Assembly (NCBI GenBank): GCA_030430565.1
Contig: JAUIKS010000008.1
Location: forward strand, 175,225-239,224
Source of the DNA: Polyangia bacterium
GTDB lineage: Bacteria; Myxococcota_A; Polyangia; Nannocystales; Nannocystaceae
Direction of reading: 5' to 3'
DNA: 64,000 bases
The notes beneath the pieces were generated by a model. That model did no database searches. It was not told the origin of the DNA and saw nothing but the letters and a program-made list of their open reading frames with translations. Both the position numbers and the translations under genes were made by a program. Below are positions 10,715 to 56,483 of the stretch, one piece after another. The first letter of the stretch is position 1. Every line of letters starts with the position of its first letter.

Positions 10715-10894
10715 GTGGACGACGAGATCGAGGTCTGCTGTCCGTACTGTTTTGAGTGGCAGGCGCTCTACGTCGATCCACAAACGCGCGGGGAGCTGGT
10801 CCAAGACTGCGACGTTTGCTGTCGCCCGTGGCGCGTGCTCGTCAGCCGCGACGAACACGGCCGCCTGCAGGTGGCGCTGGATCGAGCGCAATAA
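10715..10894 (+). CDS. Small CPXCG-type cysteine-rich zinc-ribbon protein (not in ORF track; GTG start)
   Basis: Translated by hand: (M)DDEIEVCCPYCFEWQALYVDPQTRGELVQDCDVCCRPWRVLVSRDEHGRLQVALDRAQ*. Two Cys pairs CPYC...CDVCC typical of CPXCG family. In-frame TGA immediately upstream of GTG. Confidence 0.5.
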   Translation: MDDEIEVCCPYCFEWQALYVDPQTRGELVQDCDVCCRPWRVLVSRDEHGRLQVALDRAQ

Positions 10895-11258
10895 ACCGTT
10901 CACGCGTGACTGGCGGCGGGATCGCTCGAGCGTCGACCGCCGGAGATCGGGTGACTGGCCCGCTTGCGGAGGTCGACGCGATACCCCGACTCGAAAAACA
11001 GGCTGACGAGGCCGAGCACGAGCGAGAAGAAACAACCGGCGAGGATGATGCTGGTAAACGACATGACTGGATTCCTTGTGGCTACCCCTATGCGGGGAGC
11101 CCGAGGGTTCAGCACATCTCAGGCCAACAACGACGGAACGCGGGCCCGTTGAAATAACAGTGTTTTTTAATCACTCGAGACAACGACTGGCCACCCCGGT
11201 AGCCGGATGTGGCCAAATTCGTTGCAATGGAGCACATCGCCCAGCGCGCGTTACGGCG

Positions 11259-15760: not shown

Positions 15761-18154
15761 ATGCGCTCGCTCTCGGCTTTCTTGGTGCTCTCGGCCCTCA
15801 CCGCGCTCTCGTGCAGCACTGGAGATCCGGGGGCCACCGAGACCGACGGATCGGGCCTGACATCGCAGACCTCCGAGAGCGGACCCATGCAGGTCAGCGA
15901 GTCCGCGAGCAGCACAGGCGCGGGCAGCTCGACCACGGGCGGGCCCGGGACGACCGACAGCGGCGAGACAGACTCCACGACCACCGATCCAGGCACCACC
16001 ACCGGCACGACGTCAGACGCCGAGTGCCCGACCGAGTTCCGCTTCAAGCTGCCCAACAACGGCGCGAACCCGCGGGTCGCCGGCGCCTGGCACGGCTTTG
16101 ACCTCGCGACCGCGACGCCGCTCGAGGGACCCGACGGCGACGGCTACTACCGCGGGACCGTCGAGCTCGCGCCGGGGCTGTGGGCCTACAAGATCGTCTA
16201 CGACCAGGGCGGCGAGGCGCAGTGGATCTTCGATCCAGAGCAGGCGCGGCGCACTTACTCCGACGAGGTCGAGAACTCCGCCGTGCTCGTCCGCGACTGC
16301 GCGCTGCCGACGCTCGCGGTCGAGAGCAGCGCGGCCCAGAGCGACGGCTCGTTCACCGCCGCGCTCACGTACCTCGACGGCGTCCACGAGGACGGGCCCG
16401 ACCCCGGGGCGTACACGGCGACGCTCGACAGCGAAGGCGACGTGACGCCGCTGACCGACCAAGAGTTTCAGGTCGACGCCGACACGGGCGACGTGTCACT
16501 CTCGCTCGCGTCGCTCGCGAAGGGCAAGTACACGATCCGGTTGACGGCCGCTGACAACGCAGGGCGCGAGTCCGAGCAGGTCCGCCTCGTGTTCTGGATC
16601 GAGGACGAACCCTACGATTGGGACGGCGCGCTCATCTACATGGTGATGACCGACCGCTATCGCGACGGGGACCCCGGCAACAACGGCGGCCCGACCCCCC
16701 CGGCGGATCCCCGCGGCGACTGGCAAGGCGGCGACTTCGAAGGCCTGCGGCAGAAGATCGCCGACGGCACGCTGGACCAGCTGGGCGTACGCGCGATCTG
16801 GTTGACCCCGTTCCAGACCAACCCGTCGGGCCCCTACATCGCCTCGGACGGCGTGCACCACGTGACCGGCTACCACGGGTATTGGCCGATCGCGGCGCGC
16901 GAGGTCGACCCGCGACTGGGCGGCGCCGAAGGCCTGAAGGCGCTCGTCAAAGAGGCCCACGCCCACGGGATCAGGATCCTCCAAGACTACGTGATCAACC
17001 ACGTCCACGAGGATCACGAGTACATGGCGGAGCACCCAGATTGGTTCCGCACGGGCTGCGTCTGCGGGACGCAGGACTGCGACTGGACCGGGCACGCGCT
17101 CGACTGCATGTTCGCGCCCTACCTCCCCGACATCGATCACCGCGTGCGCGAGGCGAACGCGGCGTTCGTCGAGGACGCGGTCTGGTGGCTCGATGAATTC
17201 AACATGGACGGGCTGCGCGTCGACGCGGTCAAGCACGTCGAGGAGGCGGCGACGCGCAACCTCGCCGCAGCCGTGCGCGAGGGCTTCGAGGCCGCCGGCA
17301 CGCGGTACTTCCTGATGGGCGAGACCGCGATGGGCTGGGCCGACTGCGCCGACCCGTGCAACGACGAGAACTACGGGACCATCTCAAAGTACGTCGGCCC
17401 CCTCAACCTCGACGGTCAATTCGACTTCGTGCTCTACCACGCGGTCTCCTACAACACCTTCGCGTACGGCAGCAAGGGGATGCTGCACGCGGCGTACTGG
17501 TTTGAGCACGGGCTCGAGAAGTGGCCGGCGGGCTCGGTGATGACGCCCTACATCGGCAGCCACGACACGCCGCGCTTCGTCTCGCTCGCCGACTACCGCG
17601 GTCAAGATCCGGAGCACGATCCGGGCGTCGCCCACAGCCAGTGGGACAACGTGGCTCAAGAGCCAGGTGAAGCCGAGCCGTACCGACGCGCGCGCGTCGG
17701 CTTCGCGTGGCTGCTCGGGCTGCCCGGCGCGCCGCTGCTCTACTACGGTGACGAGTACGGGCAGTGGGGCGGCGCCGACCCGAACAACCGCCAGATGTGG
17801 CGCGCGGAGGCGCAGCTCAGCGCGGACGAGCTCGAGACCCTCGAGTTCGTCCGCACGCTCGGCGCCGCGCGCAGGGACATCCCCGCGCTCCGCTCCGGAG
17901 CGTACGTCGCCCTCGACGCGACGGAGGACAGCATCGTGTACGGGCGCCACCTCGAGGGCGGCGACTCGGCGATCGTCGCCGTCAACCGCGCCGGCGCGCC
18001 GCAGCCGGTCACGGTCCAGGTGAGCGCGTCGCTCGAGCTCGAGCCCGACGTGGTGCTGAAGGACGCGCTCGGCGGTCCCGACGTAACCGTCTCGATCACC
18101 GGGAACGCGAGCTTCAGCATCCCGGCGAGCGGCGCGGTCATCCTCTCCCAATGA
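15761..18154 (+). CDS. GH13 alpha-amylase family lipoprotein with N-terminal CBM48/glycogen-binding-like domain
   Basis: Start MRSLSAFLVLSALTALSC (lipobox). CBM48-like FRFKLPNNGANPRVAGAWHGFD...YYRGTVELAPGLWAYKIVYD. GH13 catalytic blocks DGVHHVTGYHGYW, GIRILQDYVINHV, GLRVDAVKHV, FLMGE, GSHDTPRF. Confidence 0.8.
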   Translation: MRSLSAFLVLSALTALSCSTGDPGATETDGSGLTSQTSESGPMQVSESASSTGAGSSTTGGPGTTDSGETDSTTTDPGTTTGTTSDAECPTEFRFKLPNNGANPRVAGAWHGFDLATATPLEGPDGDGYYRGTVELAPGLWAYKIVYDQGGEAQWIFDPEQARRTYSDEVENSAVLVRDCALPTLAVESSAAQSDGSFTAALTYLDGVHEDGPDPGAYTATLDSEGDVTPLTDQEFQVDADTGDVSLSLASLAKGKYTIRLTAADNAGRESEQVRLVFWIEDEPYDWDGALIYMVMTDRYRDGDPGNNGGPTPPADPRGDWQGGDFEGLRQKIADGTLDQLGVRAIWLTPFQTNPSGPYIASDGVHHVTGYHGYWPIAAREVDPRLGGAEGLKALVKEAHAHGIRILQDYVINHVHEDHEYMAEHPDWFRTGCVCGTQDCDWTGHALDCMFAPYLPDIDHRVREANAAFVEDAVWWLDEFNMDGLRVDAVKHVEEAATRNLAAAVREGFEAAGTRYFLMGETAMGWADCADPCNDENYGTISKYVGPLNLDGQFDFVLYHAVSYNTFAYGSKGMLHAAYWFEHGLEKWPAGSVMTPYIGSHDTPRFVSLADYRGQDPEHDPGVAHSQWDNVAQEPGEAEPYRRARVGFAWLLGLPGAPLLYYGDEYGQWGGADPNNRQMWRAEAQLSADELETLEFVRTLGAARRDIPALRSGAYVALDATEDSIVYGRHLEGGDSAIVAVNRAGAPQPVTVQVSASLELEPDVVLKDALGGPDVTVSITGNASFSIPASGAVILSQ

Positions 18155-18504
18155 CCGGAGCTGTCCGGAGACACACCTTGACCCAAGCGAACAACGTTGT
18201 CTCGCGGTCGTCTCGCGCGCGATAAAAACTCAAAAAAGTTCGTTGACAGCACTAGGCGCAGCGGCTACACCGAACACGCTCCTGCCATAGGTGTGGTTGG
18301 AGGTCTCGTCATGAATCGTTCCACGCAAAAAACAGGCGTTCGCCCAGCATTGGCGGATCACATCCTGTTCTTCGCCCTCACGGGCGAAGGATACGCGTGT
18401 TGAGCAGTTCCCGGCGTGACAACGTTTTTCTAGCGAATCTTTCGTGGAATGACGCCCAGGCGCCGGGACTCTCGGCACGCGCGGTCCGCTAGCCAATCGT
18501 CCGC

Positions 18505-18576
18505 GCTGGCGTAGCTCAACGGAAGAGCACCTGCTTTGTAACCAGGTGGTTGTGGGTTCGACTCCCACCGCCAGCT
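18505..18576 (+). tRNA. tRNA, anticodon TGT (Thr) by manual folding
   Basis: Acceptor GCTGGCG/CGCCAGC, D-arm GCTC-AACGGAA-GAGC, anticodon arm CCTGC-TTTGTAA-CCAGG (one C.C mismatch at 31:39), variable TGGTT, T-arm GTGGG-TTCGACT-CCCAC. No encoded CCA. Confidence 0.65.
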
Positions 18577-18642
18577 CAACGCACGGGTCCATACCCGGCT
18601 CGGTGTCTATGCGCCGAGCCGGAGGGCTTCGATTTTCCGATT

Positions 18643-18819
18643 GGTTGTATCGAGTTGAGTTGTATCGAGTTGAGTTGTTATCGCGCTGAGTTGTTATCGA
18701 GTTGAGTTGGTATCGCGCTGAGTTGTTATCGAGTTGAGTTGGTATCGCGCTGAGTTGTTATCGAGTTGAGTTGGTATCGCGCTGAGTTGTTATCGAGTTG
18801 AGTTGGTATCGAGTTGAGT
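18643..18819. repeat. Tandem direct repeat array, about 32-bp unit (two diverged 16-bp half-units), about 5.5 copies, relatively AT-rich
   Basis: Unit gttatcgagttgagttggtatcgcgctgagtt repeated head-to-tail with no unique spacers. Lies about 65 bp downstream of tRNA 3' end. Confidence 0.85.
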
Positions 18820-18863
18820 CACAACATCTAGACGCTGTGGTATCGCCTGATATCGTAGTTCAT

Positions 18864-18899
18864 GGGCCCGCTCCCGGAATCTAGTCCGGTCGCGGGCCC
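18864..18899 (-). terminator. GC-rich hairpin (8-bp stem GGGCCCGC/GCGGGCCC, 20-nt loop) downstream of kinase gene stop. Possible intrinsic terminator without U-tract.
   Basis: Perfect inverted repeat seen in sequence about 40 nt past the stop codon of the 18937..21333 (-) gene. No T-run. Confidence 0.2.
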
Positions 18900-18936
18900 A
18901 CCGCTTTCGAAACCGTGTTGTGCGCGCGGCGCTGGC

Positions 18937-21333
18937 TCAGCGCTTCCACCACGGTTTATCGGTCGTGCTGGGCTCGCTCTCCACGTCGTCCACCTTCATG
19001 CCGGACGAGCTGAAGTCGACATCGATCTCGTCCGAGCGTGATCCAGAATCCTCGACATCCACGTCGACATCGACATCGACATCGACATCGACATCGACCG
19101 ATGAGCTGTCCAGAGACCCGAGATCGATCTCCACGCTCGTGATGGGATCGCTCTGCTTCGGCGTAAACGGAGACGGGCGCGCGGGGCTCTGAAACGGGTT
19201 CTGGGCCGGCGGCGCGAACGGCGAGCGCGCTGCGCGGTTCGGCACGGCGCGCGACGCGGACGACATCCGTCGGTTCTCGGCTTCCTTAAATCGGTTCGCC
19301 AGGGTCTTGATGAAGGCGCCCATCCACGGCTTCATCGCGTCAAACTCGCGCTCGATCACGTCCCCGGTGACCATGATCAGGGTTGTCTCGGTGACTGCGA
19401 CCACGCTCGCGGTCCGCGGCGACTCGGCGAAGATCGCGGTCTCGCCGAAGACATCACCTGGGCCGAGCATTCTCAAAGAGACGCGCTCGCCGTTAACAGA
19501 CTTGTAGACCTCGAGCCGCCCGGCCTCGACGATGTAGGCCGCGTCCCCGACCTCTCCCTCGCGGATGATGTGCGTCCCCTGCTTGTACGTGATCGTGGGG
19601 AAGTTCCCCCCGCCGCGAATGAGACGCTGAAGATCCTGCCGGAGCTCGTCTGTCGATTGGTAGCGCTCGGCGGGCTTGCGCGAGAGCGCCTTCATCGTGA
19701 TGCGCACGATCTCGCGCGGGTACATCGTGCCGCCGACGATCTCGCTCGGCGCGACGATCTCGGCGCGCTGCGCCATCCTTAAGGTCTCGATGTTCGAGTT
19801 CCCGCGGTACGGCGGCCTGCCGGTCAACACCTCGTAGAGGATCGCCCCGATCGCGAAGATGTCAGAGCGTTGGTCCAGCTCCGCGTGACGACCACGAGCT
19901 TGCTCTGGAGACATGTAGCCCGGCGTGCCGAAGACGAGGCCCTCGGTCTCCTCCGGCGGCAGCTCGGGGAGCGGATCGAAGACGATGTTCCGCCCCTCCC
20001 CCTCCACTTCGAAGAGGCGCGCGCCGCCCCAGTCCATCAGGTAGACCTGGCCGTAGTCGCCGACCATGATGTTCTCGGACTTGATGTCGCAGTGCAGCAC
20101 CCCGCGAGAGTGGGCGTAGCCGAGCGCGTCGCAGACCTTGATCAGGATCTCGAGGATGTTGAGCAGCCGGTCGTGATCGCGATACTTGGAGTGCCGGATC
20201 AGCTCAGCGAGGCTGCGCCCGTCGATCAGCTTCATCGTGAAGAACAGCCGCCGCTTCGCGTCGAGCCCGAAGTCGTGAACAGGGACGATGTTCGGGTGCG
20301 CGAGCTGCCCCGTGATCTGCGCCTCGCGAATGAAGCCGCGGACGAGCATCGGCTGTTGATATGTCCGATCGTGCAGGAGCTTAATTGCGCAGCGACGCTG
20401 CAGCGCGCGGTCGAGCACGACGCCGATCGCGCCGGTTCCTCCGCGCGCGATCTCTCCCTCGTAGCGCAGGCGCTCGCCGCTCTGCGCGAACACGGCGCGG
20501 ATCATCTCTTGGATGCGTGGGTGAAACGAGGCGATCAACGCCGCGCGCTTAGCCGCGCGCTCCGCCCGGGACGAACGGCGGATCCCCGAGTGCTCGGCCA
20601 GGTCGTGAGGCGTCGGGATCGCGCGCGAGCTGACCGCGGGAGAGTCGGCGATGTCTCGCGCCCTCGCGGAGCTGGAGGTCGCGCTCGCCTTTGACGGCGC
20701 GGGGGGGCGAGACGTCGCCCCTGGTGCCGCCAGCGCTGACGAGGTGGGGCGCGCCCCCGGAGCGGGGATCACAGGGAGCGAATCACTCGGCGTGATCGTG
20801 TCGGGCAGCGTCGTGCTCGGCGAGATGTTGACCGGGACCGACTCGTCGAGGATCGGCGAGCCGCGGGTCGACGAGCTAGGAGTCAACGGCTCCTGCACAT
20901 CGCGCGAACGTCTCCCAGCGACCGAGGGCGCTGGCGGGATAGCGGAGGACGGGGTCCCGCGCGGCGGCGTCGACGGCACGCCCAGGATCGGCGGCGTCGC
21001 GCCAGAATCATCAAGACCGCTCCCCGCGAACGGCGGCGGCGGGAGCAACGGCGCGGACGAGCTGGAGCCGCTGGGTGGAGGTCCCGCGATCGGCGGCGGC
21101 GGCGATGACGACGGAGGGACGATCGGCGGAGCCGGGGCGACCTTGGAGCTCCCCGAAGCGCGTGCCCCTTGAACCACGGGAGGCGGGGGGACGGCCCCGC
21201 GCTTTCGAGTCCGGCTCGGCACGACCGGCGGCGCGACGACGCGTGAGCCGGATCGACCCGCGTCGCGCTCATCACGACTCGTCGCGGATTCGGTCGACGG
21301 CGGTCCGCCCGCGCGCTTTTTCGAGTCGCCCAT
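18937..21333 (-). CDS. Ser/Thr protein kinase with C-terminal cyclic-nucleotide-binding (CAP-family) domain
   Basis: Pro/Ser-rich N-terminal about 300 aa. Kinase core (AIKLL, HSRGVLHCDIKSENIMV, DWGGARL, GTPGYMSPEQ). cNMP-binding block HIIREGEVGDAAYIVEAGRLEVYK...LGPGDVFGETAIF...RTASVVA. (VD)n acidic tail. Confidence 0.8.
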   Translation of the reverse strand: MGDSKKRAGGPPSTESATSRDERDAGRSGSRVVAPPVVPSRTRKRGAVPPPPVVQGARASGSSKVAPAPPIVPPSSSPPPPIAGPPPSGSSSSAPLLPPPPFAGSGLDDSGATPPILGVPSTPPRGTPSSAIPPAPSVAGRRSRDVQEPLTPSSSTRGSPILDESVPVNISPSTTLPDTITPSDSLPVIPAPGARPTSSALAAPGATSRPPAPSKASATSSSARARDIADSPAVSSRAIPTPHDLAEHSGIRRSSRAERAAKRAALIASFHPRIQEMIRAVFAQSGERLRYEGEIARGGTGAIGVVLDRALQRRCAIKLLHDRTYQQPMLVRGFIREAQITGQLAHPNIVPVHDFGLDAKRRLFFTMKLIDGRSLAELIRHSKYRDHDRLLNILEILIKVCDALGYAHSRGVLHCDIKSENIMVGDYGQVYLMDWGGARLFEVEGEGRNIVFDPLPELPPEETEGLVFGTPGYMSPEQARGRHAELDQRSDIFAIGAILYEVLTGRPPYRGNSNIETLRMAQRAEIVAPSEIVGGTMYPREIVRITMKALSRKPAERYQSTDELRQDLQRLIRGGGNFPTITYKQGTHIIREGEVGDAAYIVEAGRLEVYKSVNGERVSLRMLGPGDVFGETAIFAESPRTASVVAVTETTLIMVTGDVIEREFDAMKPWMGAFIKTLANRFKEAENRRMSSASRAVPNRAARSPFAPPAQNPFQSPARPSPFTPKQSDPITSVEIDLGSLDSSSVDVDVDVDVDVDVDVEDSGSRSDEIDVDFSSSGMKVDDVESEPSTTDKPWWKR

Positions 21334-45572: not shown

Positions 45573-47369
45573 TCAGAAGAGCACGATCCGCACGTCGCGG
45601 ACGCACGAGAGCCCGCGCAGCAGCTCGCGCGCGAGGTAGCGAAACAGCGTGTCGAGACAGATCTCGCGCGAGAAGCCGCCGTTGCCCGTGGCCAGCAGCG
45701 GCAGCGCCAGGGTCTGCACGTTCAGCGTGTCGGCGTGATAGATGCAGCTGCCCAGGATCTCGCAGATCAGGTCGCGGCTCGGGCCCGGCCCCCCGCCGAA
45801 GCCGCGGCCACGCAGCGTGATCCCGTGGAACACGAAGCGCGCGCTCAACCCCCCCGCCGAGGTCACGACCGCTCGACCCGCGCGCACCGGGATGTAGCGC
45901 TGCGCCTGGTCGTAAACGGCCTCGCCCGCGGCCTGACGGATCGCTCGCGAGACGCCGCTGCGCATGGTCAAGAACTGATCGTCAGAGCTGACGAGCGCCT
46001 CGACGTCCTGATCGACCAGGTCACCGCAGACGATCGTCAGCGTGCGCGCGTCCGGGAAGTCGTAGCGGTCGAGGATCCGCCCGCGCGCCCTGCCGGTGCC
46101 GTCCGCGACCTCGAGGTAGTGCGCGCGCCGAGAGCGGTAGCGCTCGAGGTGGGGCCGCAGCGCGACGTCCTCGACCGCGTCCCAGGGCGAGATTGCGTCG
46201 ACGACCGGATCGATGACGGCGAGCACCTCGGCGAAGGACGAGAAGCGCTCGGAGGGGGACTTCGCCAGGCAGCGCTCGACAATCTCGCTCGTCCGCGCGC
46301 TGATCGCCGGGTTGAGCGAGCGCGGCGGCGTGAGCGGCTCGGTCTTGTGCTTGTGCAGGATCGCGAACCAATTCCCGCCGTCGAAGGCGGGCCGCCCGGT
46401 CAGCGCGTGGTAGAAGGTCGCGCCGAAGCTGTAGATGTCCGCGCGCGTGTCGACGCGGCGTGGATCCTCAGCTTGCTCAGGGGCCATGTACCACGGGCTC
46501 CCGAGCACCTGCCCGACCAGCACCGCCTCGTCGATCTCGCTCGGCCCGCGCGCCAGCCCAAAGTCGACCACGCGCGCCGCCCCTTCGTCGTCGACGAAGA
46601 TGTTCGAGGGCTTGAGGTCGCGGTGGATGATGCCCTCCTGCGCCGCCGCCAACATCCCGCGCGCCGTGTCTCGCATCCACCGGATCACGCGCTCCTCGTC
46701 GATCCCCACGTCGCCTGACTCGCGCTCTTCCGCCCGCATCACGCGCGCGAGATCAAGGCCGTCGATCCACTCCATCACGAGCACGGGCCCGCGCTCGGGG
46801 AGGATGTCGAAGTCGTGGATCTCGACCACGTGCGGCGAGTCGATCTTCGCCAAGATCCGCGCCTCTTGCAGGAAGCGACCCCGCGGGGCGCCCGGCAGCA
46901 GCACCTTGATCGCTACCTGCTTCTCGAGCGTTCGGTGCCGCGCCCGGTACACCACCCCCATCCCCCCGCGCCCGACCTCCTCCAGCACCTCGTAGCGCGC
47001 GCTCACGTCTCCGTCGCCCAGCACGAAGCCCTGCAGATCGTCGCTTGGTGACGGCCGCGTGCTGTGCGTCGCGCCCTCGCGCGAGGGCAGCGTCTCCGCG
47101 CCCTGGGCCCACAACGTCTCCGCGTGCGACGCCCGCTCAGTCGCGTGCTCGCTCCGCTGCGTCTTGCCGCGATCGTGCAGGGTCGTCTCCAGCTCCATCG
47201 CCGGAGGCGGTTCCGCGCCCTCACCCGCCGCGCTCGGGTCCCTGCGCGACGCCGTCATCGCATCCTCCACACGGGCAGCATCCCCCACCCCTTCGTGCGC
47301 AGCAAGCGTCCGCGCGCGGAAATTCGACCCCCGCCCACCGCCGCGACGCTCAGCGAAGGGCCGAAGCAC
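45573..47369 (-). CDS. Ser/Thr protein kinase fused to C-terminal macro-like (ADP-ribose-binding-type) domain
   Basis: Kinase motifs (GRGGMGVVYRARH, AIKVLL, HRDLKPSNIFV, DFGLAR, APE). C-terminal about 190 aa LTIVCGDLVDQDVEALVSSDD...RAIRQAAGEAVYDQAQRY...GRAVVTSAGGLSARFVFHGITL follows macro-domain spacing but lacks canonical NAAN/GGGV. Confidence 0.7.
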   Translation of the reverse strand: MLRPFAERRGGGRGSNFRARTLAAHEGVGDAARVEDAMTASRRDPSAAGEGAEPPPAMELETTLHDRGKTQRSEHATERASHAETLWAQGAETLPSREGATHSTRPSPSDDLQGFVLGDGDVSARYEVLEEVGRGGMGVVYRARHRTLEKQVAIKVLLPGAPRGRFLQEARILAKIDSPHVVEIHDFDILPERGPVLVMEWIDGLDLARVMRAEERESGDVGIDEERVIRWMRDTARGMLAAAQEGIIHRDLKPSNIFVDDEGAARVVDFGLARGPSEIDEAVLVGQVLGSPWYMAPEQAEDPRRVDTRADIYSFGATFYHALTGRPAFDGGNWFAILHKHKTEPLTPPRSLNPAISARTSEIVERCLAKSPSERFSSFAEVLAVIDPVVDAISPWDAVEDVALRPHLERYRSRRAHYLEVADGTGRARGRILDRYDFPDARTLTIVCGDLVDQDVEALVSSDDQFLTMRSGVSRAIRQAAGEAVYDQAQRYIPVRAGRAVVTSAGGLSARFVFHGITLRGRGFGGGPGPSRDLICEILGSCIYHADTLNVQTLALPLLATGNGGFSREICLDTLFRYLARELLRGLSCVRDVRIVLF

Positions 47370-47529
47370 GCTGAATACGCGCCGCGGAGCGCTCGCGCGC
47401 CTCTCTATAGGAAGACCACGTGCTGGTCCAGCTCAGCGAACTGCGGGACTTGGCTGGCGGCGGAAGTCCTTGCCGCGCGCGAGCGAGCTGCGGCCCCCGA
47501 CCTGATAGGGGCGTGGCCCCGTAGTGTTC

Positions 47530-50500
47530 TTACATGTCCTCGTAGCCCGCTTTCACGATGTGCAAGGCCCACTCGGTGTCAATCCAGCGGGTCGACTTGT
47601 GCGGTGTCCCGTCGAGGTAGCGGTGGCGATGCACCCGCTCTTGGTCGAGTACCCCGCCAGTCCGCGCGACATCATCTCGGGCCGCGAGCACCCAACCGAG
47701 ATCTGTTGTCGACACCGAACGCTCGGCGAATCCTCCGGTCCCACCATCGACCCGAAGTCCGCCCTTCGCAGCGCCTCCGATGATCCGCAATCGCGTCGAG
47801 CCCTGGGCGATCCATGAACCGGGAGGGTACCGGTCGAGGACACGCTTCACGAGCGCCACGGCTTGCTCGCGCCAGCGACGAGCCAGTGTCCGCGAAGCGC
47901 CGCGTCCCTTGCCGAGCGCTCTCCACGTTGCGAAGTCGACCTCCGGGATCTTCCACGCCGAATCGCGCCAGCGCCCAACCCCGGCGTATCGCCAGCCAGA
48001 CGCGTGCCGGGTCATGACGAACGCCGTCTCCGAGGGGCGACGGTTGGGTACGGGGAGTTCGACCGCGTCAGGCGCGGTCAGCGGTCCTTTGCTCTCCACG
48101 AGTAGGAACAGGTGCCCATCCACACGTGACCACGGACCGCGGGGGGGCTCGGAGAGCTTGAACCTCGCCACCAGGTCCTCGTTGCTCAGGAACTCGCCAA
48201 CGAAGGGCGCGAGCTGCTCGGGACGAACCACGTCGACGACTCGCGCGAGGACGGTCGTCTCCGCTGTGACTGGAAGGTCAGGTGCATCGGGGTTGTCCGA
48301 GCGAAGCTCAAAGCCGCCCTTGGCCTTCACGAGCCGCTTGAGGTGGTGGGCGAAGCCCGTGTGGGTGTCGCCCCGCGCAACCAGGACAACGCGCCCGACG
48401 ACCGCGGCGAGCGGAAGGCCGCGCCCCCACTCGAAGACAACCCAATCGCCGTCGCAGATCGGCTTGGATCCACCGCACATCGAGTCTCCATAGGCGCGGG
48501 TCGCAAATCGATTCTCGGCGGTTTCAACGGGGAGGCGCACGTAGTCCGCTTCAGCCTCAACTTCGACCGCCGGCCTCGAGATTGAACCGGCGGCCACCTC
48601 CAAGCTTGGGTACGCGACGAACCTGCCCCTTGGAACAAGGTCGATGACAGCAGCGAGAGGCTCGACCCACCAGCCGTCGGGCGCCCGCCGAAACTGAACG
48701 CGATACCGAGTGCCGGTTGCTCCCGCGCTTGGTCCGAACCACTGTCGGAGCAGATCCGGTAGCTTGTTGTCACGCGCGCCAACCGGCCGCGCCACATTGA
48801 CCGCGACTTTGACGAAGCGAAACAGCCACATCGAGCCGTCCTCGAGCCGTACCTCGGTATCGCCGTGCGGGAGTCGCTCGCGGCCCTTCGTCGGCAAAAA
48901 CAGGATTGGGCCCTTGGAGTTGTGCGAGACGTTGCAGACGAAGGAACTCTCGCCTGCGATCGAGTCTTCGTCGACTCGGGCGCGACGTTGATAGCGTGCG
49001 AGACGAGCGTCGACGAGCTGCCACGTCATCTCGACGAGCGCGTCGCGAGCCGCGGGGTCTTCCGGCGGCGGCAGCCGGAATCGCAGCGCGTCGTCCTGTA
49101 TGGAGAACCACGGCCCCTTCGTCCACGCCTGGATCGGGTTCTTTCGCCAGTAGCGACGCCACACAGCGGGCTCCGGAGCGCGCGGATCGGGTAGAGCCTT
49201 GACCCCCTTGAGATCCTCGAACAAGACAGGGTTGCGAAGCAGGTAGGCGTGGCTGCGACGCGCGAGCTGCTCGAGCGGCATCCCGTCGAACAGGGCCTCG
49301 GACGTAAGGAGCACTTCGAGCACGACCATCTTGAAGCACTTCGTCAGGCTCTCGCTGGCCTCGACGGCGTGCAGCCAGTCCTCGCCGTGTACGTAGGCTT
49401 TGCGCTCGGCTTCGCCGAGGTCGTTCTCGTCGCCAACGAACTCGAACCAGCTTTTATAGCGCTTTCGAATCGCGCGGATACTCTGTCCGAGTCGAACCAG
49501 TTCTCCGGGTGTTGGGCGAGTTCCACGTTCATCACGGAGTTCGCGGTAGACCTGCACCGCCGGGATCGCGTGGGAGGCCGGCGTGAGTTTCTTGAGCAGC
49601 TCGATGGCCTCGAGCTTGATCTCCACGCTGCATCCGGCCGGGAGTTCCAGCGTCTCCGGTCGCTCGAGGAATTGGGACAGAGGCGGCGCAGACGGTGAGA
49701 GCGTGAGCAGCGTGCGCACGCGGCCGAGGAACACCTTGTGATTGCCGACAAAATCGATGACCTCGAGGACATCTTTGCCCTCCGAAGTTCGCAGGCCGCG
49801 CCCGAGTTGCTGGAGAAACACCAGCGGCGACTCTGTTGGACGCAGCATGACGACCCGGTCGATCTGTGGCACGTCGATGCCCTCGTTGAACAGGTCGACC
49901 GCCGCGATGGCCTCGAGCTGACCGGAGTCGAGCTGCTCGAGGGCGTCACCACGGGACGCCGACGTTTCGCCCGAATGAACCGCGACGACTCGAACGCCCT
50001 TGCCCTTGAGCCATTTCGCAACGTAGTCCGCATGGCCGATCGACACGCAGAACACGAGCGTGCGAGTCGCGGGCCGCTCACACCACGCTTCGTACAGGCG
50101 CGACATCCGGGCCTCGGTCTCCACGAGTCGAGCCAGGTGCTCGATCGTGAACTGACGCCACGGCATGGGTTTGTACTCGGTTGTATCCGCGAGCCCTCGG
50201 TAGTGAAACGGCACAAGCAAACCACGCTGGATGCCCTCGCCAAGGTCGGCGCGAAAGGCAACGTGGTCGTCGAAGATCCCGCCGATATCGCCCTGGTCGG
50301 CGCGCTCCGGTGTGGCCGTAAGGCCGAGCAGGAACTTCGGATCGAGATGCGCGAGGAGCCGCCGGTAGGTCGGTGCGGCCGCGTGGTGCACTTCGTCTAC
50401 GATGACGTAGTCAAAGCTTGTCGCCGAGAGTCGGGCGAGCTGCTCGGGTCGCGTGAGCTTCTGAACCGACGCGAATACGAACTCGGATGACAGGTCGTCA

Positions 50501-51816
50501 GACGCCCCGTGAAAGAAGCCAAAAGTCGCGCTGGGAAACACGCGGCGAAACGTAGCGCTCGCCTGAATGAGCAGCTCACGGCGATGGACGAGGAACAGCA
50601 CACGAGTGCGAAGCCCCCGTCGTTCGCAAAACGCTTTGACATCGAATGCGGCCAGAAACGTCTTGCCGAGACCCGTCGCCAGGACCACCAAGGCGCGCTC
50701 GCGGCCATCGTCGCGGCTGCGCGCGAGAGCCTCGAGCGCGTCATTCTGGACACCGCGCGGAGCGACCAGCTCGTCAGTGATACCCTCTGCTTCCCCGATC
50801 GGCAGCTGCGCGTTGTCGGCACTCCGTCGGGCGTATTCCTGAAGCCATACCTCATCAAGGGTTCTCGCTCTCGCCCAAAGCTCGTCGAATGCTCCGACGA
50901 TGGCCGCGTACGCAGCGGGGTCGCGCGCGGCCTCTGTTCGCAGGTTCCACTCGACCCCAACGCCCAGGGCTGAGTCGGACCAGTTTGAGCTCCCGACGAA
51001 CGCGACAGCAAAATCGGGACCCTCAAACCGCCATGACTTTGGGTGAAACGCTCGATTATTTTGCAGCCTGGTCTCAACAACGCGTACCGAGAACGATCCG
51101 GGGCCCTCAGCTTGTGCGAGCTGCGCCCAGTCGAGTAGCCGGCGAAGCGCCTGAACCTGGGTGATGGCCAAGTAATCGCCAGTAACGACGCGAATCGTTG
51201 CACCACGTTCGAGCGCTTCATCAATCTGCACAGAGAGCGTATCTACCCCGGTGTGTTGGACGAAAGCCGCGACAATAGAGATCTGATCCGCGCGCTCAAA
51301 CAAATGGCGGACCGGACGACGAAACGGGTCGTCGGGACCCCCCACAACAAGTGGAGCCGCACGCGCAGCTCGGTTCGCCCACTCGTGCTCGGTGGTGGGC
51401 CGAGGGATGAATCCTGCCTGTTTGTAGTTCCCGTACCTGGGAATGACGAAACGAACGCCGCCCCGTGGGTCATCAACATCTCCCGTGTAGCGGGGAATCA
51501 CATGAATATGGAGATGGTCGACGGTCTGGCCAGCGGCATGTCCGGAGTTGAAGCCGACGTTGTATCCGTCTGGCTTGTGCGATGCGTCGAGCTGTCGTTT
51601 GACCGTCTCGACGAGTTCGAATATCGCGGTTTGCTCCTCGCGGCTGGCGTCGAACCAGGTCGCCACCACCCGATGGGGGATCACGAGCGTGTGCCCGTCA
51701 CTAACGGGGTAGGCGTCGCGAATGGCAAAGGCCAGCTCGTTCGAGGCAACCCACTCGCTGTTCGAAATCTCTGTAAACGGAGAACTCACGACGAATCGAC
51801 CTCGAGCCTTACACAC
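47530..51816 (-). CDS. 1428-aa fusion: HIT hydrolase - PLD (HKD) nuclease - SF2/ResIII helicase - DUF3427-like region - B3-like DNA-binding domain - LexA/UmuD-type S24 peptidase - unknown C-terminal domain
   Basis: HIT HLHIHVIP. PLD FHPKSWRF...GSSNWS. Helicase I ATGLGKT, II VDEVHH, III LTATPER, VI LQQLGRGLR. B3-like FVCNVSHNSKGPILFLPTKGRERLP..GSMWLFRF. S24 site VAAG(S) at aa 1074-1077, GDSM at 1110-1113, DGDWVVF, HLKRL (Ser1112/Lys1160). Confidence 0.85.
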   Translation of the reverse strand: MCKARGRFVVSSPFTEISNSEWVASNELAFAIRDAYPVSDGHTLVIPHRVVATWFDASREEQTAIFELVETVKRQLDASHKPDGYNVGFNSGHAAGQTVDHLHIHVIPRYTGDVDDPRGGVRFVIPRYGNYKQAGFIPRPTTEHEWANRAARAAPLVVGGPDDPFRRPVRHLFERADQISIVAAFVQHTGVDTLSVQIDEALERGATIRVVTGDYLAITQVQALRRLLDWAQLAQAEGPGSFSVRVVETRLQNNRAFHPKSWRFEGPDFAVAFVGSSNWSDSALGVGVEWNLRTEAARDPAAYAAIVGAFDELWARARTLDEVWLQEYARRSADNAQLPIGEAEGITDELVAPRGVQNDALEALARSRDDGRERALVVLATGLGKTFLAAFDVKAFCERRGLRTRVLFLVHRRELLIQASATFRRVFPSATFGFFHGASDDLSSEFVFASVQKLTRPEQLARLSATSFDYVIVDEVHHAAAPTYRRLLAHLDPKFLLGLTATPERADQGDIGGIFDDHVAFRADLGEGIQRGLLVPFHYRGLADTTEYKPMPWRQFTIEHLARLVETEARMSRLYEAWCERPATRTLVFCVSIGHADYVAKWLKGKGVRVVAVHSGETSASRGDALEQLDSGQLEAIAAVDLFNEGIDVPQIDRVVMLRPTESPLVFLQQLGRGLRTSEGKDVLEVIDFVGNHKVFLGRVRTLLTLSPSAPPLSQFLERPETLELPAGCSVEIKLEAIELLKKLTPASHAIPAVQVYRELRDERGTRPTPGELVRLGQSIRAIRKRYKSWFEFVGDENDLGEAERKAYVHGEDWLHAVEASESLTKCFKMVVLEVLLTSEALFDGMPLEQLARRSHAYLLRNPVLFEDLKGVKALPDPRAPEPAVWRRYWRKNPIQAWTKGPWFSIQDDALRFRLPPPEDPAARDALVEMTWQLVDARLARYQRRARVDEDSIAGESSFVCNVSHNSKGPILFLPTKGRERLPHGDTEVRLEDGSMWLFRFVKVAVNVARPVGARDNKLPDLLRQWFGPSAGATGTRYRVQFRRAPDGWWVEPLAAVIDLVPRGRFVAYPSLEVAAGSISRPAVEVEAEADYVRLPVETAENRFATRAYGDSMCGGSKPICDGDWVVFEWGRGLPLAAVVGRVVLVARGDTHTGFAHHLKRLVKAKGGFELRSDNPDAPDLPVTAETTVLARVVDVVRPEQLAPFVGEFLSNEDLVARFKLSEPPRGPWSRVDGHLFLLVESKGPLTAPDAVELPVPNRRPSETAFVMTRHASGWRYAGVGRWRDSAWKIPEVDFATWRALGKGRGASRTLARRWREQAVALVKRVLDRYPPGSWIAQGSTRLRIIGGAAKGGLRVDGGTGGFAERSVSTTDLGWVLAARDDVARTGGVLDQERVHRHRYLDGTPHKSTRWIDTEWALHIVKAGYEDM

Positions 51817-51911
51817 TCAAGGACATCGGTCATTCTCTGTAATCCCACACGCCACGAAACGGTAGATTGGCGTTCGCAATGTCATCATGACTACTCCAGC
51901 GCTGCGCGGGC

Positions 51912-52907
51912 TCACTGCTCAAAGCAGTATAGATGTGCTGGGAGTGCGCACGGAATGGTGTCTCCAAACGCGGACCAACGTTCATCCGTGTAGTTTGATT
52001 TCCCGAACTGTCCTGGCTCGAGATCGTCGCTGGTCCACTCAGAACAGTGCGCCATGTCGGGATGCTGCTCTCCCCAGGGCACAGTATTCGTCCACACCGA
52101 TACACCGTCGAGTAATTGACCGCTCTCGTCCATATCGATGGGGGCTTCGAGTCCTCCATCGACCAAGTCGTTCCAGTTGTCGGCTACCTTGGTCCCGTCG
52201 ACCAGGACATATCGTCCCTCGGACTTGAAGAAGTGTGTAGACGGCGAGTACTCGGACCCGCTGATCCAAGGACGAAAGTCGATGGCGTTCTCGAAGCCGG
52301 CCTCAAGCGCACGCTCGCGGCAGCGATTGATTGCACCGTCGATACCAGATAGATCTCCGAAATACGCTTCACTCGAGACAAAGACGACGCGATCGCGGGC
52401 GCAGGCGGTGTTGCAGCCGTCGTCTTTCTGATTGCCATCGTCACACTCCTCGTTAGGGCCAACGAAACCGTCGCCGCACATCGGGAGCAGACACGCGTTG
52501 GTGCATTCGTCGCTATTCTCGTCGTTGCCGTCGTCGCACTGCTCCCCTACTTGGACCTGACCGTCGCCACAATCCGCCGGCTCGCTCGTGTTGGTCGGGT
52601 CGCTGGTTGTGGAGCTCATCGCTGTCGTCGTGCCCGACTCGCTCTCGGACATCGTCCCGTCGGGACCACCGGTTGTCGTCTCGCCGCCCGTCATCGATGT
52701 GGGCTCAGTTTCGCTCTCGCTCCCCGACCCAACCTCGCTCATGCTCTCGCTCTCGGAGTCCCACGTCACCGTGATCTCGAGCGCTTCTTGCGAGGCCGCC
52801 TCGGCTTGGCATCCGACGAGGAACATGGCCAAGGCCGCGTGTTCGGCGTGTTCGAGTACTCGGGTTGACTTCGAGGGTCGCATCACGGACTCGCTCATCA
52901 TCGCCAA
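51912..52907 (-). CDS. Secreted protein with two Myxococcus cysteine-rich repeats and C-terminal DUF1554-like domain
   Basis: Hydrophobic signal LAMFLVGC. T/S/E-rich linker. CGDGQVQVGEQCDDGNDENSDEC and CGDGFVGPNEECDDGNQKDDGC. Cys-containing C-terminal domain ending LYCFEQ. Confidence 0.6.
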   Translation of the reverse strand: MAMMSESVMRPSKSTRVLEHAEHAALAMFLVGCQAEAASQEALEITVTWDSESESMSEVGSGSESETEPTSMTGGETTTGGPDGTMSESESGTTTAMSSTTSDPTNTSEPADCGDGQVQVGEQCDDGNDENSDECTNACLLPMCGDGFVGPNEECDDGNQKDDGCNTACARDRVVFVSSEAYFGDLSGIDGAINRCRERALEAGFENAIDFRPWISGSEYSPSTHFFKSEGRYVLVDGTKVADNWNDLVDGGLEAPIDMDESGQLLDGVSVWTNTVPWGEQHPDMAHCSEWTSDDLEPGQFGKSNYTDERWSAFGDTIPCALPAHLYCFEQ

Positions 52908-53021
52908 AATCGCGCGGAGATGGAAAAGCCCGTGTACCGCGGTCCAAGTGTAGGTGCAACACGCACAAACAACGAGATCGAAGTTACTGTTTCCGTTTGG
53001 CGCGTGCCCGTTGGGCGCCTA

Positions 53022-56000
53022 CTACGTCGCGCGGTAGCGTGTCCCGCGGGCGTTGCCACGGCAGGTCACCAGACCTTCTGTGCCCAACCGGGACAAGCTC
53101 GCTCGCAGCTGCAAGGGTGTACCTCCAGTCAGCTCACGCAACTCCGCCGCGGACGCGGGATGGTCAAAGGAGCGCACCGCCTCGAGCACCGCGCGATCGT
53201 ATTCCTGACGACCCTGCGCGGTCCGGGTGTTGATCGCCCGGGCCCGCGGTGATGTCCGCGTCGTGCCGCGCTTCGTCGTCTTCGCGCCCTTCTTCGCTGG
53301 CACAACACAAGCGACAGCCGGACGAGACGCGGCCACGTCTTCATCGCGCTCGACATCACCGTCGGACTCCAGCAGCGCCATCAGCTCCTCGGGCGAGAAG
53401 CGCGTCACGCCGCCGTCGCTCGCCAGCAGGCCCTCGGCCAGCGCCCGCTTCTGCTCGTGCAGCTCGAGCACCGCCTGCTCGATCGTCCCCTGCGACACGA
53501 AGCGGACGACCGTCACGGGCTTGTCCTGACCGATCCGGTGCGCGCGGTCGCTGGCCTGATCCTCGACGGCGGGGTTCCACCACGGGTCGAGGTGGAGCAC
53601 GTAGTCGGCGGCCGTCAGGTTGAGCCCGGTCCCGCCCGCCTTGAGCGAGATGAGGAACAGCGGCGCGTCTCCGGTCTGCCAGCGCTCGACCAGCTCGGCA
53701 CGCCGCTTCGCGGGGGTGGAGCCGTCGAGGTAGAGGTGCTCGAGCGTGGTCGCGTCCAGGCGCTCGCGGACCAGCGCGAGCAGGCCGGTGAACTGGCTGA
53801 ACACCAGCGCCCGGTGGCCCTCGGCGTGCAGCTCCGTGACGAGTTCCATGAAGGACTCGAGCTTGGACGAGGTCGCGCGCGAGCCCTCCTCCATGAGCTT
53901 GGGGTGGCACGCGAGCTGGCGAAGCCGCGTGAGCGCGGCCAGGATCGCGAAGCGGGCGTCTGGATCGTCTTCCCCAGGCCCATCTCGTCGGCCAGGCACG
54001 CGCCGGCGCCCCACTCCGCCAGGCGCATCAGCCACTCGAAGCCCTCACGCTGGTAGTCCCGCAGCGTCCCGTTGAACGCGGAGGGGACCCGCGGCTCGAT
54101 CTCCCGCCGCTATGCGCTCGAGCAACCTCGAGGTCGCGTCGTCGATGTCGAGCTGGGCCGCGTCCTCGACGAGTTCGGCGACGACGTTGACGGCCGCCGC
54201 TCCGCTCACGAGCTTGTCGCGCACGGGCGCGAGCGCGGCGTCGCTGTCGGCGAGTCGCCGCGCGAGCGCGCGCTCGAGCTCGACGAAGCGCTCGGGGCCC
54301 ACGCGGACGAAGCGACGACCCCCGCGCGCGGCCGCGAGCAGCTCACGCAGCGGGATGCGCTCGCCGTCGACCGTGACCTCGCCCTCGACCTCGAACCACT
54401 TCGGGCCCCGCCGCAGCTTCACGCGCAGGTCTCTCGGCGACGCTCGCTTCTTGAGCACGCGCCACGCCTTGCGCCCGGTCCACTCGATCGCGAGCGGGGG
54501 CTCCCCCTCCTCGGCGCGGCGCTGGAGCTCCGTGAGCAGCGCGAGCGCGGGCTGGAGCTCTTCGACGCGGTACTGGTGCTCGCGCTCCGTTCGGAAGCGC
54601 TCGAGCTCGAGCTCGCGCTCGAGCGCTTCGACGGCGCGGCGCTCTTGCTCGAGATCGCGCCGGGCGTGCACACGCTCGCCATCGAGCGCCCCGTACACGC
54701 TCGTGGGTCCCTGTCCCGGCGGCCATACCGAGCCGCCCTCACCGAGCGGCGCGCTCACGAGGGACACGACGAGTGATTCGTCGTCGGGCGTGAGACGCAC
54801 GACGAGCGCGGCGCCGCGTGAGACGCTTCGGCCCTGAAGCGCCGGCGGCAGCTCGAGCCCGACCGCGGGCTGGAGCTGTTGAAGCAGCGGGAGCAGCGAG
54901 GCGTAGGCGTCCTCCGGGAGACCGGCGCGATGCGTCTCGATCAACTCACGCAGCCCGTCGACGAGCGGCGTGCGCTCACAGAACACGCACACGCCGGTTT
55001 TGGGCTCGAACACGAACAACACCGCCCGCGCGTGATCCTCGGCGAGTTCGTGCTCTCGCAACGCGCCGAGGCGAAGCTCGAGATACGCGAGCTCCTCTCG
55101 CTGCGTCACGACGAGCGTCGGCGAAACCTCGCGCAGGCGTATGCGTTTGCTCGGATCGTCCGCCCGGAAGACGAGCTCGTGCTTGCACAACGCCCGCAGC
55201 GCGCTGAGCTGCGTACGCGCCGAGACCGAGCGTCGAGTCCAGCGGTAGTCATGCTGGATCTCGAGGGCGTCGGCGATCTCGCGGTCGAGCGGCGATGGCT
55301 CGGCGCTCTGCCACTGGATGTCATTCGGGCTGCACTTGCTCCCCGGGCTCCAACCGCCGCGCTTCTTTTGTTTCTGCACCGCAGGCCGAACCGTCAGCGC
55401 GCCGTCGCGCAGGTCCACGCGCCAGGTGACTCTCCGGGGCGCCGTGCTCGCGACAACACCGACGCTGTGCCGTCGCACCAGGCGATCGAGCGCCTCGACC
55501 GTCCGTGACCAGCCAAAACCCCCGGCGATCTCGAGCAGCGCTTCGTGGAGCCCGTGATCTGGATCGAAGAGCGCGTCGAGCGTCCATTCAACCAAGGAAC
55601 GCGCGTGGGCACGTTCGTGTCGCTTACGGTGGAAATCAAAAGACAGCGGCCGCGCGCGGTAGTCTCGCAGCGACAGGCTGACGGTCTTGCCCAGCTCGGA
55701 GTGCAGCACCGTGAGCGTCCGCTCTTCGCGGTGGAGCTCGACGATGATCTCGGCGACCAGCACAGGCTCCAGCGCGCGGGGTTGCGACCGGATGGCGTCG
55801 CGGAGCTCCGTCAGCGCGCGCGCGAGCAGCTCGAGCGGACGCGCAGGCAGCGGAGTAGACCAGAGCCCCATTCGCTTGCGATCGAGCGCGGTCCGCCGCG
55901 CCTCGGTGTACAGCTGCTTGCGCGCGGCCTCACGGGCGCGGTCACCAACGCTGCTCCAAAGGACATCCATCATGGGAGGCGGCGTGAGCGGTGGCACCAA

Positions 56001-56483
56001 CAGCTGGATATAGGTCGGCGTACCGACGTGATCGAAAAGGCCCGGCGGGATCCCGCCCCAAGCCGCGAGCTCGGGCACCGGCGCGTCGAGCAGATCCGCG
56101 ACGCCGTGTCGCTTCGCCCAGGCGCGCAGCGGCTTGGGCTCGCGCGGCGGCGAAGGAACATCGATCCCGACGTAGAGCTGGCGGGGCGACCAGCGGACGC
56201 GCTGGTCATCCGTGTCGGCGACGGAGAGCGCGTCGACGAGTTCCCGAATCAGGATGAAGCGCATCTCTTCGGGTAGCTCCTCGTCGAGATACCGGTGAAA
56301 CACGGGGCTCGAGAGCAGCTCTCCCATCGTCTGAATGTTCAGGAGTCGGGCGAAGTCACGGACGAACTCGACGGTGTCCCAATCACCGTCGATCTCGTCG
56401 ACGGCGATCGAGTTCAACATCCGCGCCCGCGCTGGTACTCGGAGCCAGCGCTTTAACCCTTGGACCGTCGTCGGGGCTCCCAT
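53022..56483 (-). pseudogene. SNF2-family helicase, disrupted (frameshift before DYQ motif; internal deletion of ATPase lobe 1 after Walker A)
   Basis: An 812-aa N-terminal ORF (54045..56483) ends in a stop. +1 frame reads [40 protein letters not shown] (SNF2 Q/Walker A). Then a frame change gives [22 protein letters not shown], joined directly to helicase-C (LDGSTP, WWNPAVEDQASDRAHRIGQ). About 250 aa incl. DExH missing. Confidence 0.55.

Follow-up and report, generated by a model that had tools for sequence, protein, structure and literature searches.

Among the described restriction systems, the closest to the one considered here is SauUSI of Staphylococcus aureus (PDB 7clg), an ATP-dependent Type IV enzyme of 953 amino acids (aa) whose coupler comprises residues 618 to 805 and whose apo-structure represents an inactive state that requires a large rearrangement (PMC7913695). 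Restriction can also be controlled by proteolysis, as in the Type I enzyme EcoKI, where restriction alleviation proceeds through ClpXP (PMC11109961). The stretch analyzed in this work (referred to as the window) comprises 64,000 nucleotides of contig JAUIKS010000008.1 from a Polyangia bacterium and carries, in a segment of lowered GC content, a gene for a protein of ∼1420 aa, called here the nuclease-ATPase. This protein very probably belongs to the SauUSI-type Type IV restriction enzymes acting against modified DNA. Domains that SauUSI lacks are a HIT domain at the N-terminus, an additional beta-barrel, and a complete S24 module of the LexA type placed before the reader domain. The overall explanation that fits the locus best, and that appears fairly probable, is a foreign SauUSI-type enzyme with a LexA-type off-switch, accompanied by a passenger lipoprotein.

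The nuclease-ATPase, described in the original prediction as a giant nuclease-helicase of a possibly defence-related island, does combine a PLD-type nuclease with an SF2 ATPase in an arrangement of the SauUSI type, as expected of a defence gene. Residues are numbered here from the GTG codon at position 51816, and numbers counted from the database start are lower by 9; the protein is 100% identical to the database protein P0001 (1419 aa), and the N-terminus of the family consensus fits a start at V10. The domain order is HIT, PLD nuclease, SF2 ATPase, coupler, beta-barrel, LexA-type S24, and SRA-like reader (Table 1). The HIT domain carries the motif HLHIHV (aa 101 to 106, positions 51499-51516; HLHIHVIP when extended to aa 108), which is near-invariant in the family, and the PDB matches of this region are HIT and Ap4A-phosphorylase structures (E to 1e-16). 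The PLD domain has a single HxK motif, HPKSW (aa 258 to 262, 51031-51045), followed by GSSNWS (aa 275 to 280, 50977-50994); both are conserved in the family. The catalytic motifs of the HIT, PLD, and ATPase domains are all intact in the window copy and conserved among its relatives.

The relationship to SauUSI is supported by matches in two libraries. In the PADLOC defence library, the top match of the protein is mREase_IV, a Type IV methyl-directed restriction enzyme (E=4.7e-97), and the best solved structure is SauUSI, with E=1.5e-81 for the single sequence and E=1.5e-120 for the family profile. The profile match spans SauUSI residues 21 to 680 and takes in the nuclease and ATPase domains and a portion of the coupler; it includes an alignment of the PLD region with the SauUSI nuclease domain and runs into the SauUSI coupler, so that a helical coupler is present here as well. 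Beyond this point, Pfam searches of aa 690 to 1075 and 1195 to 1428 at E<=10 gave nothing useful. The sister forms of the enzyme have a Pfam DUF3427 domain in the place where the window protein has a divergent reader, which was identified by its fold; from the fold comparison, this C-terminal part is modeled as an SRA-like domain that would correspond, in diverged form, to the DUF3427/SRA target-recognition domain of SauUSI. The list of fold matches is headed by LexA and lambda cI (13.6), followed by winged helices of the ORC/Cdc6 type (8-9), sulfur-binding domains of phosphorothioate-dependent enzymes (7.7), SauUSI (7.4), B3 domains (6.2-7.3), and SRA domains (6.1-6.8).

The S24 module, which sits directly before the reader, is recognized by the Pfam peptidase S24 model (PF00717, aa 1073 to 1194, E=1.6e-9) and has the S24 fold, and position 85 onward of the TIGR00498 lexA model aligns from aa 1073. 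The catalytic Ser1112 lies in the sequence GDSM (codon at 48481-48483) and Lys1160 lies in HLKRL (codon at 48337-48339). Residues A1075-A1076-G1077, the counterpart of VAA/G in LexA, are invariant in all 42 of the 42 aligned family members, as are the Ser and the Lys of the dyad, and the distance of ∼35 residues between the site and the Ser corresponds to the spacing in LexA. The family consensus reads P(S/T)L(R/K)AAAG ahead of the S24 core and FAVRxxGxSMxGG...DGDW around the catalytic Ser, followed by KR with the invariant Lys. Given the invariant site and dyad, the protein has the full set of sequence features by which self-cleaving S24 proteins are defined, and it seems probable, judging from this conservation, that the module is an active self-cleaving switch. 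A module consisting of S24 and the reader was found in ∼324 cluster representatives among 1.84 billion proteins. The possibility that it is a portable module attached to other effectors as well was considered and ruled out, as it is essentially confined to the family of the nuclease-ATPase.

Table 1. Coordinates of the features of the locus (window positions; residues counted from the GTG codon at 51816)
Feature	Coordinates	Strand	Details
Ser/Thr kinase and Macro-domain gene	45573..47369	-	Left flank, Pfam; synteny anchor
Nuclease-ATPase gene	47530..51789	-	1419 aa from GTG at 51789; open reading frame (ORF) open to GTG at 51816 (1428 aa)
SRA-like modified-base reader and helical tail, aa 1200-1428	47533..48219	-	Predicted; identified by fold
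S24 peptidase core, aa 1090-1199	48220..48549	-	Ser1112, Lys1160
Predicted self-cleavage site VAAG, aa 1074-1077	48586..48597	-	Scissile bond A1076/G1077
Seven-stranded beta-barrel, aa 958-1053	48658..48945	-	Tentative B3-like DNA-binding pseudobarrel
SF2 helicase-like ATPase, aa 352-690	49747..50763	-	ResIII E=5.5e-36, Helicase_C E=6.3e-14
ATPase motif VI, QQLGRGLR	49789-49812	-	
ATPase motif III, TATP	50308-50319	-	
ATPase motif II, DEVHH	50383-50397	-	
ATPase motif I, GLGKT	50659-50673	-	
PLD/HKD nuclease domain, aa 193-314	50875..51240	-	Family-conserved motifs, SauUSI alignment
HIT domain, aa 20-111	51484..51759	-	Pfam PF01230 E=2e-22
DUF4215 cysteine-rich lipoprotein gene	51912..52883	-	Probable start M9 at 52883; ORF open to 52907
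DUF8344-SNF2 helicase pseudogene	53022..56483	-	Compared with intact 1292-aa Pyxidicoccus homolog in locus L125

The family was compared across 84 loci, including 79 from metagenomes, 4 from genomes, and the source contig itself, and occurs in three forms. The short form consists of the HIT, PLD, ATPase, coupler, and barrel domains, with the SRA half of DUF3427 joined directly to the barrel (Pfam E 1e-22 to 1e-25). In the second form, S24 stands ahead of a DUF3427-type reader (E 1e-18 to 1e-22), and some members lack HIT; the window form has S24, then the divergent SRA-like reader and a helical tail. A gene for an SprT-like protein, a zinc metalloprotease of ∼170 to 200 aa (Pfam E to 4e-18) that ends in a zinc ribbon, is located directly upstream on the same strand in 22 of the 32 eligible short-form loci (loci with this gene are L076, L079, L080, L082, L086-L093, L097, L102-L104, L107-L109, L115, and L116) and in none of the 23 eligible S24-form loci (Fisher p=8e-8 for the mutual exclusion). 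Because two proteases are thus associated with one enzyme core and exclude each other, proteolysis seems to be part of the control of the enzyme, which suggests that control by proteolysis is common to the family as a whole. The family is widespread; full-length database matches of the protein number in the thousands and are labeled only “DEAD/DEAH box helicase family protein”; no published description of HIT, S24, or SprT joined with PLD-helicase or SauUSI-like enzymes was found in a literature search of incomplete coverage.

Variation within the family extends to other parts of the loci. The S24-bearing proteins of L114, L117-L120, and L123 align only from ∼aa 139 despite the presence of upstream sequence and apparently have no HIT domain, so HIT is not obligatory for the S24 forms. 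In 11 short-form loci (L073, L078, L082, L086, L090, L094, L103, L105, L108, L110, and L122), a small ORF of 100 to 250 aa is located just downstream on the opposite strand and could be either a real gene or an antisense artefact of a conserved region.

The genomic contexts of the family members are patchy and change between genomes, and none of the members was found on viral contigs. In Anaeromyxobacter sp. Fw109-5, the homolog (L124, CP000769.1 4634173-4658429) is located on an integrase-bearing island that adjoins serS and encodes an SNF2/NOV_C helicase, two DUF1156 proteins, a DUF499 ATPase, the nuclease-ATPase homolog, an HNH_2 protein, an excisionase-like HTH_17 protein, and a phage integrase. 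Among the 77 nearest genes in 20 surveyed loci, there were Schlafen-type (SLFN) DUF2075 helicases (5 genes), NERD-UvrD proteins (3), canonical PLD-helicase-DUF3427 enzymes (2), HNH proteins (2), and DrmD, HmaC, SIR2, and DUF499 proteins (1 each). An association with DUF2075 has likewise been reported for DUF3427 enzymes (PMC6765204).

In its composition, the two-gene span 47530-52907, compared with the rest of the window, is clearly set apart. The original prediction had noted by eye that the DNA from about 47.5 to 52.9 kb is poorer in GC than its flanks, and this is borne out by the windowed and codon-based measures that it had proposed as a check, namely GC, GC at third codon positions (GC3), codon usage, and tetranucleotides, all four of which are atypical. 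The GC content of 1-kb windows is 0.58-0.67 in 47.5-53 kb and 0.70-0.73 in the flanks on either side; the span as a whole has a GC content of 0.631 against 0.699 for the remainder of the window, and all 477 equal-sized windows elsewhere lie above it (minimum, 0.658). Against a reference of 38 other ORFs (GC3 0.889 +/- 0.037), GC3 is 0.740 in the nuclease-ATPase ORF (z -4.1) and 0.723 in the DUF4215 ORF (z -4.6), and the synonymous-codon likelihoods of the two have z values of -3.5 and -3.7, respectively. In the GC-normalized tetranucleotide signature, 47-54 kb is the sole strong outlier in the 64 kb (r 0.75-0.77 versus 0.874 +/- 0.025 elsewhere; z to -5.0), and the remaining GC dips, at 3.5-13 kb and 18-19.5 kb, show no k-mer deviation. 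By GC3, codon usage, and the GC-normalized tetranucleotides, no part of the window deviates more than these two genes. The edges of the low-GC segment coincide with gene boundaries. The dip in the nuclease-ATPase gene is almost entirely at synonymous sites, with GC1 (0.70) and GC2 (0.48) similar to those of its neighbors. The encoded proteins had also been described as poor in Ala and Arg, which holds for the DUF4215 protein (A+R 0.105, z -2.2) but not for the nuclease-ATPase, whose amino acid composition is ordinary (A+R 0.207, z -0.3).

The second GC dip of the window, at 18000-19500 (GC 0.587), has no GC3 signal in a coding frame, and its tetranucleotides are normal; the only tRNA gene of the window, tRNA-Thr (TGT) at 18505-18577, lies within it.

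A comparison with a related genome, likewise proposed earlier, found a colinear left flank and neither of the two segment genes at the corresponding site. An ortholog of the kinase-Macro gene with 80% identity was detected only in the Myxococcales metagenome-assembled genome (MAG) HK-STAS-MYXO-17 (L004), the closest available relative, which is colinear with the window over eight kinase-side genes (KinMacro, AhpC, cNMP, hyp440, ADI, and three more, with 44 to 80% aa identity). Directly upstream of its kinase gene, L004 carries unrelated high-GC genes and none for the nuclease-ATPase, the DUF4215 protein, SNF2, or GST, so that synteny is lost precisely at the left border of the low-GC segment; this site comparison involves a single relative, whose contig ends 10 kb from the anchor and leaves the right boundary unfixed. 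The sister organism does have the nuclease-ATPase gene, on another, short 5.2-kb contig (L003), with 85% protein and 83% DNA identity to the window copy, a similarly low GC3 of 0.75, and a different upstream neighbor; homology between the two contigs stops exactly at the start codon of this gene. Its nonsynonymous divergence (dN) is 0.08 and its synonymous divergence (dS) 0.65, with an identity of 0.61 at fourfold sites, whose GC content (GC4) is 0.74 and 0.77 in the window and L003 copies, respectively. For seven core genes compared between the window and L004, dN is 0.12-0.21, dS 0.37-0.55, fourfold-site identity 0.63-0.70, and GC4 0.92-0.99. Since the dS of the nuclease-ATPase gene is at least at the level of the core genes, the two copies were not exchanged recently, and the sequence divergence argues that the acquisition of this gene is not recent. 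It can be read as an event that preceded or accompanied the split of the lineages and was followed by relocation or independent insertion. Taken together, the composition and the synteny make it likely that the segment is compositionally foreign and came by horizontal transfer, with a lower-GC organism, probably a myxobacterium, as the most likely donor. Low GC as a general trait of the family was considered and ruled out, as members in other genomes generally match the GC content of their flanks and hosts.

By homology to SauUSI, the following mode of action is envisaged for the nuclease-ATPase. The SRA-like reader, perhaps aided by the beta-barrel, would recognize a modified base in incoming DNA; recognition would turn on the SF2 ATPase and cause translocation along the DNA; and two PLD domains, each contributing one HxK motif, would pair and cut the DNA. 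Self-cleavage at A1076/G1077 would separate the nuclease-motor part from the reader and the dimer interface of S24 and, by analogy with LexA, lambda cI, and UmuD, would be stimulated by RecA filaments on single-stranded DNA (ssDNA). The module could then act as a built-in off-switch, a form of restriction alleviation, while the cell's own DNA suffers damage. That the switch turns the enzyme off and not on is proposed tentatively and by analogy; this direction is favored because the loss of the reader and of a likely dimerizing domain should disable targeted cutting and because EcoKI and ClpXP provide a precedent for proteolytic alleviation. The broader notion of an enzyme with its own SOS-type fuse, in which a RecA-sensing cut between the nuclease-motor and the reader switches it either off or on and sister enzymes rely instead on the SprT-like, DNA-dependent protease encoded upstream, is similarly conceivable but doubtful.

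The same module could instead be an on-switch, in which case the intact protein would be inactive or restricted in its targets, and RecA-stimulated cleavage in the course of phage replication would free a DNA-shredding nuclease-translocase, an SOS-licensed response resembling abortive infection. Both readings draw on the same evidence for a functional LexA-type module, cleavage by S24 can activate a protein, as it does in UmuD, and many phages produce ssDNA and RecA filaments. The description of the SauUSI apo-structure as inactive and in need of a large rearrangement (PMC7913695) also speaks for this reading. However, removal of the only reader would abolish the discrimination between self and foreign DNA and put the host chromosome at risk, PLD nucleases need dimers, so that the loss of a dimerizing S24 would more naturally weaken the activity, and the known precedent for proteolysis of restriction enzymes is alleviation and not activation (PMC11109961). 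Although no single one of these points is decisive, activation by cleavage seems unlikely. Considerably less probable is the idea that the whole family serves in DNA repair, acting on DNA-protein crosslinks or blocked ends with a Tdp1-like PLD domain, an aprataxin-like HIT domain, a helicase, and an SprT protease of the Spartan/Wss1 kind, wired to the SOS response through S24. Repair parallels for the two N-terminal domains are indeed supplied by Tdp1, an enzyme of the PLD superfamily, and aprataxin, a HIT enzyme; the HIT domain is conserved, SprT-like genes stand directly upstream of the short forms, and the S24 module ties the protein to the logic of RecA and SOS. On the other hand, the homology to SauUSI is continuous over the nuclease, ATPase, and coupler, C-terminal DUF3427/SRA readers are typical of modification-dependent restriction enzymes, many defence genes occur in the neighborhoods, one member resides on an integrative island, and the patchy, context-hopping distribution is unlike that of core repair genes; these features favor defence over repair.

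As to the origin of the segment, horizontal transfer has to be weighed against long-standing residence, in which low GC3 would have local causes such as weak expression, weak biased gene conversion, or selection, and the change in synteny would be an ordinary rearrangement. The dS and fourfold-site identity of the nuclease-ATPase gene, at least at the core level, and the similar GC4 of its two copies, as at equilibrium, would agree with residence, and so would the fact that integrase, transposase, flanking repeat, and tRNA were not found; the DUF4215 homologs of the relative are also somewhat poor in GC3 (0.82-0.87 versus 0.92-0.96). Yet the GC-normalized tetranucleotides are aberrant too (z -5), the gene stands in a different context in each of the two sister lineages and is missing from the orthologous site, family members elsewhere match the GC content of their hosts, and the family is patchily distributed, with an integrase-bearing island in Anaeromyxobacter. 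Moreover, equal GC4 is explained equally well by parallel partial amelioration after one older acquisition. Residence without transfer thus has a small but real share of the probability. A chimeric join in the contig is very improbable. The DNA does come from an uncultured or metagenomic assembly, and the homolog of the sister MAG sits on a short 5.2-kb contig, but an independently listed Logan contig of 32.5 kb, which may share the same reads, matches the window at 100% identity along 24,260 bases that include both junctions, the closest homologs of both genes (85% and 61%) come from the sister myxobacterial lineage, and the junctions lie in ordinary intergenic spacers between co-oriented genes.

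Several observations weigh against the picture of a foreign, SOS-controlled enzyme, which nevertheless is the reading preferred here. With regard to the protein, PLDc_2 alone scores 25.3 bits, just under the Pfam cut-off of 27 bits, and the B3-like and sulfur-binding-domain-like labels for the middle module were reached by elimination and not by alignments. The data would fit a switch in either direction, and the dependence on DNA modification and on RecA, like the self-cleavage, is predicted from homology and analogy. As a guess, HIT might remove AMP from a ligase or from 5'-adenylated DNA ends and so block resealing; some S24-bearing relatives do without it. With regard to the segment, the sister copy is as diverged as the core genes and both copies have a GC4 of ∼0.75, so that their equal GC4 could reflect ancient residence at a compositional equilibrium of its own instead of transfer. 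No integrase or transposase gene, flanking repeat, or nearby tRNA gene was found in 46.8-57 kb; a search for repeats or att-like sites at the edges returned short GC-rich chance matches only, plus one distant tRNA. The suggestion of a horizontally acquired defence island therefore stands as far as the foreign composition, the synteny break, and the defence-type gene are concerned, but the hallmarks of mobility expected of a genomic island or a mobile element are absent from this locus. Its extension to a variable insertion of 47.5-56.5 kb did not find support: the adjacent SNF2 pseudogene is native in composition, and no right-hand limit could be set for the variable region, as the N-terminal part of SNF2, taken as a second anchor, matched itself and one partial homolog with 27% identity. 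Promoter and terminator scans and an Rfam search over 46.5-57.5 kb gave results at background level throughout.

The second gene of the low-GC segment codes for a cysteine-rich protein with a signal peptide followed by an invariant G32-C33 lipobox, and it matches Pfam DUF4215 (E=1.5e-11) and TIGR02232 myxo_disulf_rpt. The earlier description of a cysteine-rich secreted protein in the low-GC segment thus holds in the form of a DUF4215 lipoprotein, but a defence role finds no support: the protein has no match in the PADLOC defence-protein library and is a member of a large secreted family typical of Nannocystaceae and other Myxococcales. In relatives, its gene and that of the nuclease-ATPase are unlinked, and the DUF4215 homologs of the sister organism (61% identical) are located elsewhere than its nuclease-ATPase gene. 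The DUF4215 gene is probably a passenger unrelated to defence. L043 and L044, from the two MAG assemblies, are 99.96% identical, which shows that both assemblies represent one organism; in L043, two inverted copies of a DUF4215 region (4491-5477 on the plus strand and 10557-11552 on the minus strand; 90.7% identical over 1.4 kb) lie on either side of an IS66-family transposase and a CarboxypepD_reg protein, an arrangement that resembles a composite transposon.

To the right of the segment, the SNF2 gene is decayed, as predicted: its reading frame is interrupted by a TGA at 54045-54047, a frameshift has moved the motif-I segment to another frame (53951-54088), and the remainder of the ATPase N-lobe (∼215 aa, homolog residues 874 to 1088) is deleted. 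This remnant (53-56.5 kb) does not belong to the low-GC segment, however, since it is native in composition (k-mer z +0.6; GC3 0.83-0.85). In Pyxidicoccus sp. MSG2 (L125 15986-19864), a DUF8344-SNF2 gene is found within two genes of the nuclease-ATPase homolog, and its C-lobe is 61% identical to that of the window; this could reflect a functional link or mere co-location in defence islands. On the left flank, the kinase-Macro gene has a native GC3 of 0.89, and its Macro domain is of the type that binds or hydrolyzes ADP-ribose. Its PADLOC matches to “PD-T4-6” were rejected as generic similarity of kinase domains, the gene being syntenic and compositionally native.

As a compositional island, the segment is ordinary, with a probably foreign defence gene located where synteny breaks; the novel parts are the N-terminal HIT domain and the complete LexA-type module ahead of the reader in an enzyme of the SauUSI type. 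If the reading as an SOS-type fuse is true, dedicated proteolytic control hard-wired into restriction enzymes would represent a previously undescribed principle. If the module works, it would tie restriction directly to the RecA/SOS signal and show how cells restrain or unleash a dangerous translocating nuclease upon DNA damage. The conserved HIT domain would add a further uncharacterized activity.

Beyond its additional domains, the window protein differs from SauUSI in a reader that has diverged past detection by the Pfam DUF3427 model and in the helical tail that follows it. In LexA, lambda cI, and UmuD, the S24 domain follows a small DNA-binding domain, whereas here the module lies inside a nuclease-translocase of 1400 aa and it is the part C-terminal to S24 that serves as the putative DNA reader; cleavage and its dependence on RecA are predictions. 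The likeness to EcoKI and ClpXP consists in proteolysis of a translocating restriction enzyme that protects host DNA when self-DNA is targeted or damaged. EcoKI, however, is degraded by a general protease acting in trans, and in the family of the window protein the protease would be built in (S24) or encoded by an adjacent gene (SprT-like), so that the resemblance is one of analogy and not of homology. BfiI and R.NgoAVII are PLD nucleases with B3-like domains, an assignment that is tentative for the barrel of the window protein; unlike the activity proposed here, they read unmodified sequences, and BfiI has no ATPase, whereas the ATPase of NgoAVII is a separate subunit. Finally, ScoMcrA and SprMcrA are Type IV enzymes dependent on phosphorothioate and 5-methylcytosine (5mC) that combine a sulfur-binding domain (SBD) with SRA and HNH domains; the window enzyme has PLD in place of HNH and an ATPase motor in addition, and its similarity to SBD is weak and not localized.

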